In this document: piece by piece, positions 8,067 through 15,740 of the stretch
How the letters are laid out: the number at the start of each line of letters is the position of its first letter
Numbering within the stretch: the first letter of the stretch is position 1
Assembly: GCA_963815095.1 (NCBI GenBank)
Contig: CAWFFH010000006.1
Span: 147,289 to 211,288 of the forward strand
Source: Candidatus Bathyarchaeota archaeon
GTDB lineage: Archaea; Thermoproteota; Bathyarchaeia; Bathyarchaeales; Bathycorpusculaceae
Direction of reading: 5' to 3'
Length of the DNA stretch: 64,000 nucleotides
Translations under genes and position numbers: made by a program
Notes under the pieces: model-generated
Seen by the model: the letters and a program-made list of their open reading frames with translations, nothing else
Told to the model about the DNA's origin: nothing
The model's database searches: none

Positions 8067-8765
8067 TCAAATTCGCTGTGCAACAATCATTGCGTGTGCT
8101 TTGTCGTATGGTTCTAGATCCACGATTTCTTTTACGTCAAAACCCCTGTTTCTTAGTATGGCTGCTTCTTGGCGATAGACTGCATTGGGGTCCATTGTAA
8201 CGTCGATGCTTTGGGATTTGCATGCAAGCATAACCCAGCCTTGTGGTTTGAGGAAAACGTCTGCGTTGTCTGCGAGGAGTTTGGCTTGTTCGGGTTGTGC
8301 GACATCGCAGTAGATCGTGTCGACTTTGCCTGAGATGAACATGGCGTACCGCTCGGGCAGGCGTGCATCTTCGAGCATAGGTGAAATGTTGTTTCGGTAA
8401 GCCGCGACATTGTTAACTAAATCTCGAAGAGAGCGCTGCGCAAATTCTACGCAGTAAACGTGTCCGGTGTCACCGACTATGTCTGAGACATGGCTAGGTG
8501 TGGTTCCAGAGGCTGCACCCAAATAAAGAATTTTGAACCCAGGTTCGACAGGTACGTTTTGGACGCCTTTTATGATGGCTCCTGCAAGTTTACTGCGGAA
8601 CGCATCCCAAACTCGGTACTCAACATATTTGAATTTGAAAAGCCGTTCGCCATAAACCCGAAGCCCAGGGGTCAAGTTTTTTGTGGCTAACCGCTGATGA
8701 CCGTCTTCCAGCATTACTTGGTAGATTTCTTCGAATTTAGGGTGTGGTTTAACTTTGAGGTGCAC
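8067..8765 (-). CDS. flpA: Fibrillarin-like rRNA/tRNA 2'-O-methyltransferase
   Basis: VYGE, YRVWDAFRSKLA, LYLGAASGTTPSH, DVAQPEQ and LEPYDKAH motifs. Likely start is GTG 8765, overlapping the nop5 stop. Confidence 0.93.
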   Translation of the reverse strand: MHLKVKPHPKFEEIYQVMLEDGHQRLATKNLTPGLRVYGERLFKFKYVEYRVWDAFRSKLAGAIIKGVQNVPVEPGFKILYLGAASGTTPSHVSDIVGDTGHVYCVEFAQRSLRDLVNNVAAYRNNISPMLEDARLPERYAMFISGKVDTIYCDVAQPEQAKLLADNADVFLKPQGWVMLACKSQSIDVTMDPNAVYRQEAAILRNRGFDVKEIVDLEPYDKAHAMIVAQRI

Positions 8766-10182
8766 GTCGTTCTGGTCCCCGGTTTTGACCGCCACCGCTA
8801 CCGCTTCCGCCGCGTCGGTCACCTCTATCGCCGCCACCGTAACTGAAGTTGCGTCCTCCGCCTCCACCGCCGCCTCCGCGATGTGGTGGTCTTGGACCTC
8901 TATCGCCGCCACCAAAGTTTTTGCCACCGCCCCTGAATCCGCCTCGGTCATCTCTTCGTGGAGGTCGTTGTTCTCTTCGTTCAAATCCCGCTGCTCCTTC
9001 GGGACGTGGTTTAACTTCTTTTGGCGCTGGGGGTTCTTTGTATTTTACGTGGATTTCTTCTATGCGTTTGTTAATGTCCTCTTTTAATTTGTCTCCGATA
9101 TAGTGTCCTGCTCCGAAAGCGTCAGCTCGAGCTGCAATGGCGAGTTTGCCTGCAATGACCCGGGCGATTTTTCCGCGTTGCCACCTTTTGGCGTCATGAA
9201 GCAGGGTGTGTTGGAAAATTAATCCATGTTTTGGTGGTCGTGCTCCTGTTTTTAGGCTGCGGAAGAGGGCTTTTTCTGCACCTATAACTTGTATAGTGCT
9301 TGCTGGTCTCATGGCTAAGTTTTGTAGACTTCCTGCCATGGCAATCAAACGTGCCCCCAAAAGGGATCCAGCAACAGCGCGTACGTTTGGCGCGAGTTCC
9401 TCCATAGTGTGGTCAACGTAATCTTCCATGTTCTTGCGCAACAAATAGAAATCCAAAACGTTCTTGGCTAAGTCTTGCACCATTTCCAGGTCGGCTTCTG
9501 CCACATCTGCGCCCATAGATGATTCAGCTGCTTTCGCCATAAGCTGGGTTCGTTCTTTTGGAATGTTCTCTTTTTCCAAATTGTCAATAGTAAAGTTTTC
9601 CCTATCACCCAAGTTCACAACAAGCCTGGAGTACGTTTCGTGTTTTTCGACCAGACGATCAAGCTCTGGGAAGTACACGCCATACCATTCGCGGAGTCTG
9701 CCCATAAAGAGGTTAACGGTTTGATCTAAACTATCGAGTGTTTGGATGCCTTGAGCAACTATTAAGTCACGTTTTCCAGTGGCACCTTTAATCCGTAACT
9801 TTGCAAGTTCCAAACTGACACTGCGGTTCCAAACGCTAAGTTCCTGTTCGTCCTTCGCAAAGCCTACCTCAATCGCTAATTCACCCATCCGCGAATGAAG
9901 CACGGCGGTTTCCGCGGGCTTTGCAACTTCAACTTTGACTTTCATTTTCTTTTGGGCTTCTTCTGCCAACTTGCCGGATTCAAAAACAAAAGTATCGTAA
10001 CCTACGCTTGCGAGAAGTGATATTAAGGATGAGACTTGATCGGATAATTTTCCAGACTCAGTTTTTAGCATGCTTTTTGCTGCTGCCACCGCATTTTTTG
10101 GAAACAGTGCTTTTTCTACTAAGCCGTTGTTTTCGTCGAAGGCTGCAACGCCGAAGGGAAATTGAATGATGACTATTTTCAT
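8749..10182 (-). CDS. nop5: Nop5 (Nop56/Nop58) C/D box sRNP protein with a C-terminal Gly/Arg-rich tail
   Basis: REWYG-FPEL, APN, LGARLI, PASTIQVIGAEKALF, PPKHG and RGKIAR motifs, followed by an RGG-rich tail. Confidence 0.93.
   Translation of the reverse strand: MKIVIIQFPFGVAAFDENNGLVEKALFPKNAVAAAKSMLKTESGKLSDQVSSLISLLASVGYDTFVFESGKLAEEAQKKMKVKVEVAKPAETAVLHSRMGELAIEVGFAKDEQELSVWNRSVSLELAKLRIKGATGKRDLIVAQGIQTLDSLDQTVNLFMGRLREWYGVYFPELDRLVEKHETYSRLVVNLGDRENFTIDNLEKENIPKERTQLMAKAAESSMGADVAEADLEMVQDLAKNVLDFYLLRKNMEDYVDHTMEELAPNVRAVAGSLLGARLIAMAGSLQNLAMRPASTIQVIGAEKALFRSLKTGARPPKHGLIFQHTLLHDAKRWQRGKIARVIAGKLAIAARADAFGAGHYIGDKLKEDINKRIEEIHVKYKEPPAPKEVKPRPEGAAGFERREQRPPRRDDRGGFRGGGKNFGGGDRGPRPPHRGGGGGGGGRNFSYGGGDRGDRRGGSGSGGGQNRGPERRAPQS
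8821..8913. repeat. 18-bp direct repeat ACCTCTATCGCCGCCACC (8821-8838 and 8896-8913), encoding GGGDRG twice in the Nop5 tail
   Basis: Exact match read from the sequence. Confidence 0.85.
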
Positions 10183-10461
10183 GTTATTTGGCCCCGATAA
10201 ACTATGCATTGTAACTGCATTGTCTTTATAAATAGTTTCGTTGCCCGCAATCCAAAAGAACCGTTTTTTTTAATTTATATGCCTTGAGATGCCAGAAAAC
10301 TATGGTTTGTTCTGGTTTTATTTTTGTTTTTTAGGAGGTTTGCTTATATTTTTCAAAAAAGTTAATACACAGCCTATAAATTAGTTGAAAACAAGGAAGG
10401 AAATCAAATCGAAGCTTCCAAAACAAATTCAAAAATTACTAAATTAAAGAGCGGTAAAATA

Positions 10462-11328
10462 GTGGCTGTTGGGCTTATCCAAACTTCAGTTTCCGAAAAT
10501 GTCGCCAAGAACATGGAGAAAATCGTGGAAAAGATTGAGGAAGCAGCCAAAAAGGGTGCGAAAATTGTTTGTCTCCAAGAACTATACCGAACAAGATATT
10601 TTCCGCAAGAAGAAAACAAAGATGTTTCGGCTTTAGCTGAAGTGATTCCCGGAGAATCCACAAACATATTTTCCAAGTTGGCAAAAAAATATGGAGTAGT
10701 TATTATTGCACCATTATTTGAGAAAGCTAAAAACGGCAAATTCTACAACACAGCCGTCGTAGTCGGTTCAAAGGGCGAAATCTTGGGTACTTATCGTAAA
10801 GCCCACATTCCCCAAGACCCTTATTTCTACGAAAAAGACTACTTCGCAGAAGGCGACACAGACTACAGTATTTTTGAAACAGAATTTGCCCGCATTGGCG
10901 TGCTCATATGTTATGACCAATGGTTCCCTGAACCAGCCCGAATCAACGCGCTTGAAGGTGCAGAAATAATATTTTACCCAACAGCAATCGGCTACGTTAA
11001 AGGGCACACATCTGAGGACGGCGACTGGCATGATGCCTGGCGAACTGTTCAACGTGCCCACGCCATCGCAAATGGGATCCACGTTGCAGCAGTTAACCGT
11101 GTGGGGGAGGAAGGCGAGTTGGAGTTTTGGGGGGGCTCGTTTATCTGCGATTCTTTTGGCAAAGTTCTCGCTGAAGCAAGCTCTACAAAAGAAGAAGTTG
11201 TGGTTACATCCGTTGATTTGGGCAAGAATAAGAAAATTCAGGAAGGGTGGGGTTTTCTGAGGAATCGACGCCCGGATACCTATCAAAGACTCACCAAGGA
11301 AAAAAGAAAGGGTGCGGAAGATGAGTAG
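10462..11328 (+). CDS. aguB: Carbon-nitrogen hydrolase, probable N-carbamoylputrescine amidase
   Basis: Nitrilase triad CLQEL / YRKAHIP / ICYDQWFPE, YPTAIG, RNRRPDTY; directly upstream of agmatine deiminase. Confidence 0.85.
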   Translation: MAVGLIQTSVSENVAKNMEKIVEKIEEAAKKGAKIVCLQELYRTRYFPQEENKDVSALAEVIPGESTNIFSKLAKKYGVVIIAPLFEKAKNGKFYNTAVVVGSKGEILGTYRKAHIPQDPYFYEKDYFAEGDTDYSIFETEFARIGVLICYDQWFPEPARINALEGAEIIFYPTAIGYVKGHTSEDGDWHDAWRTVQRAHAIANGIHVAAVNRVGEEGELEFWGGSFICDSFGKVLAEASSTKEEVVVTSVDLGKNKKIQEGWGFLRNRRPDTYQRLTKEKRKGAEDE

Positions 11329-12367
11329 TTCCGAGCGGAGTTGCCGTGAACAGGGTTTTTGTATGCCTGCAGAATGGGAAAAACATGATGCCATCTGGCT
11401 TGCGTGGCCCTATGACCCAACCACTTTTCCAGAAAAAGTAGAGCGCGTGGAAGCTACTTATGTCCAAATTGTTAAGGAGATTCACGAAGGCGAAGAAGTA
11501 AACCTATTCGTCATCGATGAGCCTACCAAACAAAAAGCAACAAGAATGTTTAAAGCTGCAAACATCAACATGGAGAAAATCCATTTTTACGTTTCCGACT
11601 ACGCCGATGTATGGTTTAGAGATTATGGACCAATATTTGTCAAGAACCAACATGAACTTGCGATGATTCATTGGGACTTTAACTCATGGGGAGAAAAATA
11701 TGAAACTCTGCTAAAAGACAGGCAAATTCCCGATGTAATCAACCAAAAAATGTCTATGCGATGCTTTAAACCTGGCATAGTTTTGGAAGGTGGGTCTATA
11801 GATGTTAACGGAAAAGGAACCCTGCTTACGACAGCGCAGTGCCTTCTAAACAAGAACCGAAACCCCGACCTTGACAGGCAACAGATTGAAAAATACCTTT
11901 CTAACTATCTTGGCGTAAATCATTTTATCTGGTTGAAATGTGGAATCCTCGGTGACGACACAGACGGGCACATTGATGACTTAGCAAGATTCGTGAACCC
12001 GACCACAATCGTTTGCGCCTATCAAGATGACGAAAACGATGTCGATTACGATGCCCTCAAAGAAAACTTTGATATTCTCTGTCAAGCAGTTGATCAGGAT
12101 GGCGAAAAACTCAAAATCGTAAAATTGCCCATGCCAAAAGTTGTCAGTGATGAAGATGAACGGCTTCCTGCGAGTTATACGAACTTTTACATTGGCAATC
12201 AAAAGGTGTTGGTGCCGATTTTTGACCATAAAAACGATGCCAAAGCCCTCGCAATTCTGCAAGAATTGTTTCCGACCAGAGAGGTGGTTGGGATCCGCTG
12301 CGTTGATTTAGTCTATGGGTTTGGCACGATACACTGCATATCTCAACAGCAGCCTTGCAGTGTCTAA
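11321..12367 (+). CDS. aguA: Agmatine deiminase
   Basis: MPAEW, WFRDYGP, LEGGSID-NG-G, DTDGHID, SYTNFY and GTIHCISQQ motifs. Confidence 0.92.
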   Translation: MSSSERSCREQGFCMPAEWEKHDAIWLAWPYDPTTFPEKVERVEATYVQIVKEIHEGEEVNLFVIDEPTKQKATRMFKAANINMEKIHFYVSDYADVWFRDYGPIFVKNQHELAMIHWDFNSWGEKYETLLKDRQIPDVINQKMSMRCFKPGIVLEGGSIDVNGKGTLLTTAQCLLNKNRNPDLDRQQIEKYLSNYLGVNHFIWLKCGILGDDTDGHIDDLARFVNPTTIVCAYQDDENDVDYDALKENFDILCQAVDQDGEKLKIVKLPMPKVVSDEDERLPASYTNFYIGNQKVLVPIFDHKNDAKALAILQELFPTREVVGIRCVDLVYGFGTIHCISQQQPCSV

Positions 12368-12473
12368 TCGTAAAACGTTACAATGCAGAGCCATTTTTTC
12401 TAGTTAAGTTTAAACCCTCGACTGGAATTATAGGTAAACCCCAAAGTTTGAGGAGTTCAGGAGAGATTAGGTA

Positions 12474-14690
12474 ATGGTTAATCAGCCTCCGCATCGTGCA
12501 CGCGGCGTTAAGGTGCTAAAAGCCGTTTCGTCACCGTTGCGGCTACAAATCCTTAACCTACTCTTCGACAAAAGCGCCCTCTCCTACACTGAACTTATGA
12601 ACCAACTTAAAATGAACCCCAGCCGAGACGCAGGCAGATTCGCTTACCACCTAAAATTCCTGCTAAAAGCAGATCTGGTTGAGGCAGATGTCGAGGCAAA
12701 AAAATATTATCTCACTGACCTTGGCAAGATGGTGCTCGATGTTGCTGACCGGGTGGAGAAGAAGGCGGTTAAGCCAAGAGGAATGATGGTTCGTACGTCT
12801 CATCTGACGGTAGAAGAGTTTGACGCTAACAAAATTGCCAATTCACTAATTAAAGAGGCCAAAGTGCCTGCTGAATTGGCGCAGAAGGCAGCGAAGGAAG
12901 CTGAAAAGCGCCTTGTTAAATCGAAAACAAAGTATCTGACTGCTTCATTAATCAGGGAAGTTGTCAACGGAATTTTAGTTGAGAAGGGCTATGAAGATTA
13001 CCGTAATAAACTCACCCGAGTTGGCATGCCAATCCATGAAGTAACCGCACTCATCGAAACCAAAGACGCCGCTCAAGATTGCGTAGCCACGATCAGTAAG
13101 GCAGGGCAAACCGTATTGGGCGAGTATACATTGCTAAACATTTTCCCACGGGACATCGCGGACGCTCACCTTTCAGGCGCCATTCACGTCGAAGGCTTAG
13201 GCACATGGGTACTCAAACCAAACGAGGTAATCCACGACCTAAGATACTTCTTTCAACATGGCGTCAAACTCGACAATCCACTCCAAGTCGCCATGGACGC
13301 GCCCACCGATCTCAAATCCGCCTTATCTATTGCCTTTAATGTGCTTTTGCACGCTAGCAGAGAAACCAATCGAACTCAAACCTTCAACTACTTCAACGTG
13401 TTCCTCGCACCTTATGTGAGAGGCAATGAAGTTGCGAAAATTAGAGAAAACCTGCGTTTATTCATTCAAAACCTCAACCAGCACGCTGAGGCTACGCTGG
13501 GACTTGAGCTTGCTATTCCAAAGCTAATGGCCGAAAAAGAAGCAATCGGACCGCATGGCAAACCAAACGGCAAATACGGCGACTTTACCCAAGAAAGCCA
13601 ACTAATAGCTTCTCTTACCGTCGACGTTTTCACTGAAGAAAGCGTCAGCAAGCCGCTGCTTAGTCCAAAGTTGGTTATAAAAATCAACATTGCTGCTTTG
13701 ACCGATGAAAACGCTAAGGCGATTCTGCTTAAAGCACATCAGTTAGCGGCAAAAAGTGGAATCCCATACTTTGCTAACATGACTAAAAAAGAAAACGAGA
13801 ATGCAGCTTTTTCGTCTTCAGGCGTAAAATTCTCAGCTGATTTAACTGGCGACTGGGAAACCGACACCTTGCGCACGGGCGCTTTGGGCTGCGTAACGAT
13901 TAATCTTCCCAGAATCGGGCTTGAATGCGATAAAGACAAAAACAAATTCTTTGATTTGATGCGGGAACGTTTTGAACTTGCAGCCCGAGCATTGGGGATA
14001 AAGAATAATGCGCTCAAGCAGTTTGGAAAAAATTCTCTGCCGTTTCTGCTCCAGAAAGCCGACCGCGACACCTACTTTCGATTGGAAAACTGCTCACGGC
14101 TAATTAATTTAGCTGGGTTCCGAGAAGCCATCGAAGCCTTCACTGAAAAAAGCGTTAACTCGGAAGAAAGCCGAAAATTCGCCGAAGAAACAATCATGAA
14201 CCTTTTGGCGTTTAAACAGAAGATCGGAAGAAAATACGGCAAACGTCTCTACCCTGTCATCCTCGGCAGCGCGGAAGCCTCGGAGCGGCTGGCGCAGTTG
14301 GATGTTGAGCGGTATGGGGTTGCTAAAGTGAAGTTTTCGGGAACCAGAGACAAACCGTATTATTCCACTGCTAGACGGTTCCAAGTTAAAGCCGCTGAAC
14401 TCCTCAGCATCCAAACTGAATTGCTTGAGACCGCGCAGAAGTGGAAGGGGTTGAATGCTGGCGGAAACCTAGCAATCATCGAACTTGAAGGCGCCGAATA
14501 CAAACCCGAAACCCTCATGAACCTGACAATGCGTCTAATGGAAAACCAATCCATCGAATTCTTCACCTATAACCGCTTAATCAGCTTCTGCGATAACTGC
14601 AAGAAAAACTGGTTCGGCACACTCCACAAATGCCCCAGCTGCGGCTCAATGAGCAACCTAACAACGTTTGACCGATTCACATCAACCTAA
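12474..14690 (+). CDS. ArsR-type wHTH + ATP-cone + class III ribonucleotide reductase (NrdD)-like fusion, catalytic residues apparently absent
   Basis: HTH (SSPLRLQIL...AYHLKFLLKADLV), ATP-cone (VRTS...FDANKI...LIREVV), NrdD motifs (IADAHLSGAIH, LRTG..GCVTINLPRI, ASERLAQLD, CxxC...CPSCGS). The protein ends DRFTST with no R-x-x-G-Y glycyl loop. Confidence 0.85.
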   Translation: MVNQPPHRARGVKVLKAVSSPLRLQILNLLFDKSALSYTELMNQLKMNPSRDAGRFAYHLKFLLKADLVEADVEAKKYYLTDLGKMVLDVADRVEKKAVKPRGMMVRTSHLTVEEFDANKIANSLIKEAKVPAELAQKAAKEAEKRLVKSKTKYLTASLIREVVNGILVEKGYEDYRNKLTRVGMPIHEVTALIETKDAAQDCVATISKAGQTVLGEYTLLNIFPRDIADAHLSGAIHVEGLGTWVLKPNEVIHDLRYFFQHGVKLDNPLQVAMDAPTDLKSALSIAFNVLLHASRETNRTQTFNYFNVFLAPYVRGNEVAKIRENLRLFIQNLNQHAEATLGLELAIPKLMAEKEAIGPHGKPNGKYGDFTQESQLIASLTVDVFTEESVSKPLLSPKLVIKINIAALTDENAKAILLKAHQLAAKSGIPYFANMTKKENENAAFSSSGVKFSADLTGDWETDTLRTGALGCVTINLPRIGLECDKDKNKFFDLMRERFELAARALGIKNNALKQFGKNSLPFLLQKADRDTYFRLENCSRLINLAGFREAIEAFTEKSVNSEESRKFAEETIMNLLAFKQKIGRKYGKRLYPVILGSAEASERLAQLDVERYGVAKVKFSGTRDKPYYSTARRFQVKAAELLSIQTELLETAQKWKGLNAGGNLAIIELEGAEYKPETLMNLTMRLMENQSIEFFTYNRLISFCDNCKKNWFGTLHKCPSCGSMSNLTTFDRFTST

Positions 14691-15740
<1,050 letters not shown>

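Follow-up and report, generated by a model that had tools for sequence, protein, structure and literature searches.

Three described protein families bear on the gene considered here. The first is NrdR, the bacterial repressor of ribonucleotide reductase (RNR) genes, in which an N-terminal Zn ribbon is joined to an ATP-cone; depending on ATP/dATP it binds to boxes that overlap RNR promoters, and its gene lies beside RNR genes of any class; passages of two papers describe it as rare in archaea (PMC9110341 and PMC12176259). The second is NrdD, the class III RNR itself, in which an ATP-cone, a barrel and a Zn ribbon follow one another, and the third is the ArsR/SmtB family. The gene occupies positions 12474..14690 (plus strand) of a 64,000-nucleotide stretch, which we call the window (positions 147,289 to 211,288 of contig CAWFFH010000006.1, here C6, in assembly GCA_963815095.1), from a Candidatus Bathyarchaeota archaeon of the class Bathyarchaeia. 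Its product, P0001, appears to be a catalytically dead NrdD that carries a winged helix-turn-helix (wHTH) domain ahead of its ATP-cone. On comparative grounds we think it probable that this non-catalytic descendant of a class III RNR is a one-component, nucleotide-sensing transcription factor of an NrdR-like kind, acting on the supply of deoxyribonucleoside triphosphates (dNTPs).

Like NrdR, P0001 has an ATP-cone, its gene lies beside RNR genes in relatives of this genome, and its presumed logic is that a readout of ATP/dATP sets RNR transcription. Unlike NrdR, it begins with an ArsR-type wHTH rather than a Zn ribbon and adds, after the cone, a dead NrdD barrel of about 530 residues with a Zn ribbon; moreover, it is an archaeal protein (of the Bathyarchaeia and the Nitrososphaeria), and this genome holds both proteins. 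With NrdD it shares the fold, the order of ATP-cone, barrel and Zn ribbon, and the motifs NLPR and RLAxLD, but it is without five signatures of the enzyme, has the extra N-terminal wHTH and is not paired with nrdG. Its residues 14-98 match the ArsR/SmtB family (HlyU, PDB 4ooi and 3jth) in both sequence and fold, whereas ArsR proteins are stand-alone dimers of about 100 residues and usually metal or redox sensors.

Transcription factors built on enzyme folds are well known. Bacillus subtilis PurR (phosphoribosyltransferase-like), MocR/GabR (aminotransferase-like), ROK (kinase-like) and NrtR (Nudix-like) fuse a helix-turn-helix (HTH) to an impaired enzyme domain, which serves as a ligand sensor or oligomerization module for the pathway of the enzyme. 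To our knowledge, none of them derives from an RNR, and P0001 differs from them also in its separate ATP-cone module and in the unusually large size of its enzyme remnant. We found no description of an HTH–NrdD fusion or of a dead NrdD regulator in the full-text literature; supplements, where tables of RNR subclasses might list one, lay outside this search. Within the literature searched, the family is undescribed, although an enzyme-derived sensor joined to an HTH is already known as a principle.

Architecture and loss of catalytic residues

The open reading frame (ORF) begins with ATG, encodes 738 residues and is free of internal stops. At its N-terminus lies the ArsR/SmtB-type wHTH (residues 14-98, 12513..12767), which matches Pfam HTH_5 over residues 20-70 (28.8 bits, gathering cut-off 22) and DUF7347 over residues 14-89. 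The ATP-cone follows (residues 104-182, 12783..13019; PF03477 over residues 104-176, 31.5 bits, cut-off 25.8) and then the NrdD-type alpha/beta barrel, which lacks the catalytic residues (residues 208-700, 13095..14573). Here the NRDD family, PF13597, matches residues 208-734 with 225 bits (E 2e-66; model positions 14-538 of 562), and the barrel motif NLPR is kept at residues 477-480. A Cys4 Zn ribbon (14580..14651) is formed by CDNC at 706-709 and CPSC at 720-723, with C706, C709, C720 and C723 invariant in the family. The last segment (14652..14690), which translations and alignments identify as a remnant of the glycyl-radical tail, reads ..LTTFDRFTST and then stops, with no Gly. An initial annotation, made from the sequence alone, had described this architecture and the intact 738-residue frame, and Pfam and translation bear it out; the motifs it named also fall exactly where it put them, PNE at residues 249-251 (13218-13226), FSSSGVK at 446-452 (13809-13829), LRTG at 466-469, VTINLPR at 474-480 and DRFTST at 733-738. 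Against the NCBIfam equivalog for NrdD (TIGR02487), P0001 scores 251 bits, below the cut-off of 326.35, as compared with 560 bits for the canonical NrdD of the same genome; a match to TIGR00244 (NrdR) is absent from P0001 in the NCBIfam scan, whereas the real NrdR of the genome scores 157 bits.

An AlphaFold2 model of P0001, for which 62 family sequences were aligned, has high confidence (pLDDT 88.6, pTM 0.80). Foldseek finds its best PDB matches exclusively among class III RNRs (E 1e-26 to 3e-18, TMt 0.59-0.75), with 9dca, 8p2s, 4coj and 1hk8 at the top (E 1e-26 to 2e-19) and Streptococcus thermophilus, Prevotella copri, Thermotoga maritima and phage T4 as the sources. The 10-stranded alpha/beta barrel of the type common to RNRs and PFL is present in the model, so that the class III RNR fold, which the initial annotation had thought retained pending a structure prediction, is indeed predicted to be kept. 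The N-terminus resembles HlyU (4ooi, TMt 0.71), and the sequence profile of the family matches HlyU and ArsR structures as well; its modeled helices span residues 6-17, 21-33, 38-44 and 49-65, followed by a wing at 69-80 and an extra helix at 82-98. In the ATP-cone, the modeled strands 105-107 and 113-115 form a hairpin. A two-copy complex prediction for residues 1-207 scored 0.10 against a mark of 0.42, which weighs neither way on oligomerization.

What the fold has lost is seen best by alignment (MAFFT) with the canonical NrdD of this genome, P0122, a full-model match to PF13597 (647 bits) that is 24% identical to P0001 (E 5e-34). Passages of earlier work give the finger loop of class III RNRs as MGCR or MCCR and the beta-A Cys as conserved in 92.6% of class III sequences (PMC9669993); they place the HYHD motif of T. 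maritima NrdD at 111-115, with Cys125 and G621 (PMC4493059), and a third source gives an NxN flap at 114-116 and HxHD at 157-160 (PMC11226230). In P0001, the beta-A Cys is replaced by E251 (KPNEVIHD versus GPYCVGWD in P0122), the finger-loop thiyl Cys is absent (FSSSGVKF versus SMCCRLR), and the triphosphate motif HIHD of P0122 reads HVEG (residues 238-241). The linker expected to hold the NxN flap is 18 residues shorter than in P0122, and no Asn occurs in it, at residues 179-221, so that no flap was found there. Finally, the glycyl-radical loop of P0122, SRVVGYLRP, is without a counterpart because P0001 stops first (..FDRFTST). Profile alignments to the T. maritima and T4 structures place the same residues at the same positions; in an attempt to map the specificity-site residues Gln161 and Gln218 of T. 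maritima, Gln161 fell on N289.

As judged from these alignments, P0001 has lost five catalytic or substrate signatures at once: the Gly radical motif, the finger-loop Cys, the beta-A Cys, HxHD and NxN. The proposal that the enzyme is dead, which the initial annotation had made from the missing Gly and Cys residues, thus withstands comparison with the canonical NrdD and with the T4 and T. maritima structures, with the fold kept and working RNRs encoded elsewhere. Nor can a frameshift restore an R..GY tail, because the stop codon of P0001 abuts that of the convergent pyrB.

Family, constraint and genomic linkage

A word-indexed protein search returned 3966 matches, the best 120 of which are 77-93% identical to P0001. 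Among these, 117 carry the HTH, ATP-cone and NRDD Pfam families, and the remaining three are shorter at the N-terminus; their sources are named Bathyarchaeia, and their labels read either "anaerobic ribonucleoside-triphosphate reductase" or "ArsR family transcriptional regulator". An exhaustive search of representatives at 50% identity gave 1802 matches, 330 of them below 1e-30. In all 10 loci that were translated (the window gene, L015, and nine same-family orthologues), the frame is open to the same stop and the protein ends in FDRF-x-x-T. A second subgroup, of about 700 residues, is assigned by source names to Nitrososphaerales/Thaumarchaeota. A pattern scan with one genome per species found at least 574 stretches, and the best 80 of these are titled Nitrososphaerales, Nitrososphaeria, Nitrosopumilales, Ca. 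Gagatemarchaeum, Ca. Nitrosomirales and Ca. Methylarchaceae.

Catalytic motifs were compared across 96 sequences, namely P0001, P0122 and the 94 of 150 listed representatives with sizes of 600-830 residues. Eight of the 96 rows have all three catalytic motifs (beta-A Cys, M(G/C)CR and RxxGY). Rows that begin with an HTH lack the beta-A Cys throughout, and a conserved finger-loop Cys as well. Among their more distant representatives, many still have a vestigial tail, Y[SG]R...Y.PL..W..K, which is longer than that of P0001 but has the Gly replaced; this pattern suggests stepwise decay of the Gly loop. In an IQ-TREE analysis (LG+G4) of 42 rows restricted to the barrel, the HTH-bearing forms make up one split (SH-aLRT 87.7), and FastTree on all columns, HTH columns included, places the 31 canonical and other rows on one side with support of 80; a single origin of the HTH-bearing forms is plausible on these trees.

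Two further kinds of NrdD-like sequence appeared in the searches. One set (P0198, P0199, P0245, P0252, P0253, P0255, P0259, P0265 and P0267) begins with the ATP-cone and has neither HTH nor Gly tail; most of its members are without the finger-loop Cys, some retain the beta-A Cys, and they cluster with canonical NrdDs in trees. The other consists of canonical NrdD representatives of 1100-1700 residues (P0173, P0175, P0191, P0216, P0237, P0238 and others) that match in two to five separate stretches, the pattern expected of intein-bearing RNRs; the tails inspected end in RITGY-type motifs.

The initial annotation had proposed a survey of such fusions and of their co-occurrence with an active RNR. 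Among 201 sampled genomes of the Bathyarchaeia, 137 carry the dead gene as a strong and essentially full-length match that includes the HTH (E <=6e-78), 50 have weak matches only, which are canonical NrdD, and 14 have no match. In 57 of the 137 carriers, only the dead copy scores, with no NrdD-family match better than 1e-98; 53 of these 57 have a PF02867 (class I/II-type) RNR, and the other four, with neither NrdD nor a PF02867 RNR, are metagenome-assembled genomes (MAGs) that are 72-85% complete. In five Nitrososphaeria genomes with long contigs, the sole NrdD-family matches are in every case pieces of the dead ORF (31-73 bits). Because of these counts, the dead protein appears to be independent of a partner NrdD or NrdG, and its carriers to use another enzyme for dNTPs. 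The fusions are thus widespread, with a separate RNR in the genomes tabulated, four incomplete MAGs aside.

Constraint is uneven along the protein. Over 62 members, down to 24% identity, the invariant columns concentrate in the HTH, the ATP-cone and its linker, a few barrel motifs (NLPR, RLAxLD and GxxE persist) and the four Zn-ribbon Cys. Invariant or nearly so are L30, H59, Y78 and G84 in the HTH and G184 and P186 in the linker after the cone. Within the cone, V106, R107, F116, I121, L125, E128, R161, L168 and R182 are invariant; its C-terminal end keeps Y176-R177-x-K179-x-x-R182, and of its basic residues R107 and R182 are invariant, R177 is at least 90% conserved, and K179 is present. The rate of nonsynonymous change (dN), computed against six same-genus or same-family orthologues, is lowest in the HTH (0.02-0.09), followed by the ATP-cone (0.07-0.12) and the barrel (0.16-0.27). 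Synonymous sites (dS) are saturated, and overall omega is 0.05-0.08 where computable. With dN far below saturated dS, the family keeps even the barrel under purifying selection, which is what the initial annotation had asked of a functional protein.

The positions of the gene in other genomes are the main link to ribonucleotide reduction. In the Bathyarchaeia, listed rows tabulated by hand give at least 28 genomes in which the next gene downstream of the dead gene, on the same strand, is a canonical nrdD, and at least six, all of one family, in which it encodes a PF02867 (class II-type) RNR. Of 20 distant loci examined, eight show the tandem of dead gene and nrdD, with RxxGY and the beta-A Cys present in the downstream product every time. 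In three of these tandems (L035, L036 and L037), a small glutaredoxin/NrdH-like CxxC ORF stands between the two genes, just 3' of an AT-rich promoter-like region with a GTAyA(A/G)AATTTT(A/G)TAC-like element. In Nitrososphaeria, a protein of about 776 residues is encoded at +1 on the same strand in 69 of 77 loci, and it is NrdJ (TIGR02504, 555.7 bits, cut-off 400). Because linkage to two RNR classes exceeds what a relic of tandem duplication would leave, it argues for a functional tie with ribonucleotide reduction.

On its other side, the dead gene abuts pyrB (aspartate carbamoyltransferase; 14691..15653, minus strand; TIGR00670, 393 bits, cut-off 237), which is convergent with it and separated by no gap (14690/14691), as originally reported. 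A convergent pyrB stands beside the dead gene in all 20 close same-family loci, pyrB lies within 4 kb in 11 of 20 distant loci, and a pyrB-like gene is found at +2 or +3 in 21 of 77 Nitrososphaeria loci. The comparison suggests an ancestral order of dead gene, then nrdD or nrdJ, then convergent pyrB, from which the middle RNR gene would have been lost in the family of the window. The adjacency to pyrB is, on this comparison, old synteny and not evidence of control, and pyrB as a target is a candidate only.

In this genome, a complete nrdR–nrdD–nrdG operon lies about 76 kb upstream of the dead gene on the same contig (C6, ~82.7-86.1 kb), outside the window. NrdR has 159 residues and scores 157 bits against TIGR00244 (cut-off 125), and NrdG (C6:85383-85937) scores 183 bits against TIGR02495 (cut-off 131). 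That the window has no nrdG, as first noted, is correct, since none of the 19 genome matches to the NrdG2 model falls within it (C6:147289-211288), but that observation has to be supplemented: the genome has both nrdG and a true NrdR beyond the window. At 98.45% completeness, the genome yielded no class I or II RNR. Its canonical NrdD shares only ~27-30% identity with the products of the nrdD genes that adjoin the dead gene elsewhere in the class, a low value that would fit replacement by a foreign nrdR–nrdD–nrdG operon. A fourth ATP-cone protein of the genome is encoded at L014 1492-2334 (C3, ~996.8-997.7 kb).

Promoter regions, proposed regulation and rival explanations

About 60-70 nucleotides upstream of the ATG of the dead gene is a promoter-like element, TAGTTAAGTTTAAAC (12401..12415, plus strand), which is probably a B recognition element (BRE)/TATA box; the core GTTTAAAC/TTTAAAC is kept in most of 20 aligned same-family upstream regions. 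The palindromic GTTTAAAC, common to the dead-gene and nrdR promoter regions, was considered as an operator in this genome and rejected, since its 69 copies in 2.69 Mb are about what base composition predicts. Candidate operators come from Nitrososphaeria. There, 55 of 76 regions of 80 nucleotides taken ahead of the dead gene contain TTGAC/GTCAA, as compared with 164 of 624 upstream regions that served as controls from these loci. The core is also present in 64 of the 66 spacers that separate the dead gene from nrdJ, taken whole; these run from 40 to 620 nucleotides and were not matched in length to the control. Measured from the start codon of the dead gene, TTGAC is most frequent at -25 and -55, on both sides of a TATA-like box at -35, and the nrdJ promoter has a GGT(C/T)AAC box some 25 nucleotides before its TATA-like box. 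Boxes so placed would be well suited to a repressor that blocks access of the TATA-binding protein (TBP) and transcription factor B (TFB). At loci L066-L130, the TATA-like box of the dead gene stands between TTTTGAC boxes spaced about 31 nucleotides apart; in a sister subset of Nitrososphaeria loci, an inverted repeat, TCGAGTC..GACCTCGA, flanks it instead. At L044, a run of N stands about 100 nucleotides upstream of the dead gene.

The regulatory mechanism that we propose would run as follows. The N-terminal ArsR-type winged helix would bind promoter DNA, and the ATP-cone would bind ATP/dATP, as in RNRs and NrdR. The dead barrel and Zn ribbon would serve as an oligomerization and allosteric scaffold, coupling nucleotide state to the geometry of the DNA-binding domain. 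The ancestral and still commonest target would be the RNR gene immediately downstream, whether nrdD or nrdJ, and the promoter of the dead gene itself is probably a target also. In this genome, the adjacent nrdD would have been lost, with the separate nrdR–nrdD–nrdG operon supplying the enzyme, and the present targets may include the nrd operon, the dead gene and perhaps pyr genes. Binding of DNA and of nucleotides, oligomerization, the sign of regulation and the target genes are all matters that we infer. Sensing is more likely to occur through the ATP-cone than through the old active site, because the substrate site (HxHD, NxN and Cys) appears degraded. The initial annotation had drawn the analogy to NrdR, and this receives computational support from the place of the gene upstream of a functional RNR gene of either class in two archaeal classes and from the HTH and ATP-cone being the best-conserved parts. 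In addition, an archaeal counterpart of NrdR is to be expected because NrdR is described as rare in archaea.

Several points weigh against a regulator of RNR genes. First, the evidence for this reading is comparative. Second, the bona fide NrdR beside nrdD–nrdG makes a second RNR regulator look redundant here, and in this window the dead gene adjoins no RNR gene. Third, the candidate operators are short motifs drawn from genomes that are related rather than independent, and no trusted equivalent of the TTGAC boxes was found in the promoter of the dead gene in the window. Fourth, the ATP-cone of P0001 is divergent, at 31.5 bits versus 88.6 and 75.3 for the two canonical cones of the genome, so that of the initial claim that cone and fold are retained, the fold stands on its class III RNR matches, and the cone stands above its Pfam cut-off, though in divergent form. 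Moreover, in the MAFFT alignment V-R stands in place of the canonical K-R pair, the Lys being aligned to V106; an alternative register, suggested by the modeled strands, would put R107 at the position of that Lys. Fifth, signature loss is not uniform across the family because stray residues occur in a few distant members: in eight aligned rows, among distant HTH-bearing members, the finger-loop region contains a Cys (SGCR in P0135, for example), and a few HTH members have a Gly near the old radical site (P0143, P0140 and P0174, the last with RRLGY). Finally, monophyly of the HTH forms is only moderately supported, and a FastTree of 72 rows on barrel columns needs three changes.

A broader version of the regulator is conceivable, and we put it forward only tentatively. 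P0001 would then belong to an ancient master regulator of dNTP supply in at least two archaeal classes, a fossil RNR that keeps both the ATP-cone and the specificity site at the dimer interface, reads ATP/dATP together with the balance of the four dNTPs, and sets transcription of whichever RNR class is present and possibly of pyrimidine synthesis.

Among the alternatives, we regard as unlikely, if still the strongest of them, a dead-RNR DNA-binding regulator whose regulon lies outside the RNR genes, in pyrimidine synthesis (pyrB/pyrI) or in nucleotide metabolism and replication more broadly, with RNR adjacency simply inherited as duplication synteny. The recurrent convergent pyrB would suit such a regulon, the RNR of this genome already has NrdR, and a tandem duplication of nrdD would by itself have placed the new gene next to nrdD. 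Duplication synteny fails, however, for nrdJ, which belongs to a different RNR class and yet follows the dead gene in most Nitrososphaeria loci and in at least six genomes of the Bathyarchaeia. Moreover, pyrB is always convergent, so that there is no common promoter, and TTGAC boxes are present in the nrdJ promoter region.

It seems more doubtful again that P0001 acts after translation, as a non-catalytic partner of an RNR or another enzyme through hetero-oligomerization or nucleotide buffering, with the HTH used for protein contacts or chromatin tethering. The NrdD barrel is a dimerizing fold and is kept under purifying selection, and ATP-cones drive RNR oligomerization, according to passages in PMC11226230. 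But the dead protein also occurs with NrdJ only, where there is no NrdD to pair with, and no domain of it is better conserved than the HTH, which passes the Pfam cut-off for ArsR-type DNA-binding domains.

That the protein is still an enzyme, reducing ribonucleotides by some other radical route or carrying out a different reaction in the old barrel, we consider very improbable. Five radical and substrate signatures are lost together, translation stops short of the Gly loop, P0001 falls below the NCBIfam cut-off for NrdD, and every tabulated genome has another RNR, bar four incomplete MAGs. All of this has to be set against the persistence of NLPR, RLAxLD, GxxE and the Zn ribbon, and against T. 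maritima NrdD, which passages in PMC4493059 describe as active despite an atypical finger loop in the crystal. A chance ORF, decaying pseudogene or annotation artefact, for which only the loss of catalytic residues could speak, is effectively refuted by the intact frame in 10 translated loci, the presence of the gene in 137 of 201 class genomes, the hundreds of clusters at 50% identity and dN far below saturated dS.

Neighboring genes and implications

Two other features of the window lie upstream of the dead gene. Directly upstream, overlapping N-carbamoylputrescine amidase-like and agmatine deiminase-like genes for polyamine synthesis occupy 10462-12367 (plus strand); both are below NCBIfam equivalog cut-offs, and the pair is kept upstream in only some same-genus loci. 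Farther upstream, at 8749-10209 (minus strand), translation alone indicates a Nop56/58-like ORF with a long Gly/Arg-rich C-terminal tail, which yields spurious overlapping ORFs on the opposite strand.

For the control of RNR transcription in archaea, this family provides a concrete, testable candidate. Its carriers fall in two archaeal groups that are abundant and for the most part uncultured, among them relatives of the ammonia oxidizers. As a pseudoenzyme it is striking, with an oxygen-sensitive radical RNR kept for hundreds of residues without its chemistry, and some carriers now use only a B12-dependent class II RNR (5 of 5 Nitrososphaeria genomes examined). In practical terms, the label "anaerobic ribonucleoside-triphosphate reductase" that sources give to such genes can falsely imply anaerobic dNTP synthesis in metabolic reconstructions. 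If the broader reading, of a master regulator that keeps both allosteric sites, is true, the family would be the missing archaeal counterpart of NrdR, in which the allosteric logic of an RNR has been converted wholesale into a transcription factor.

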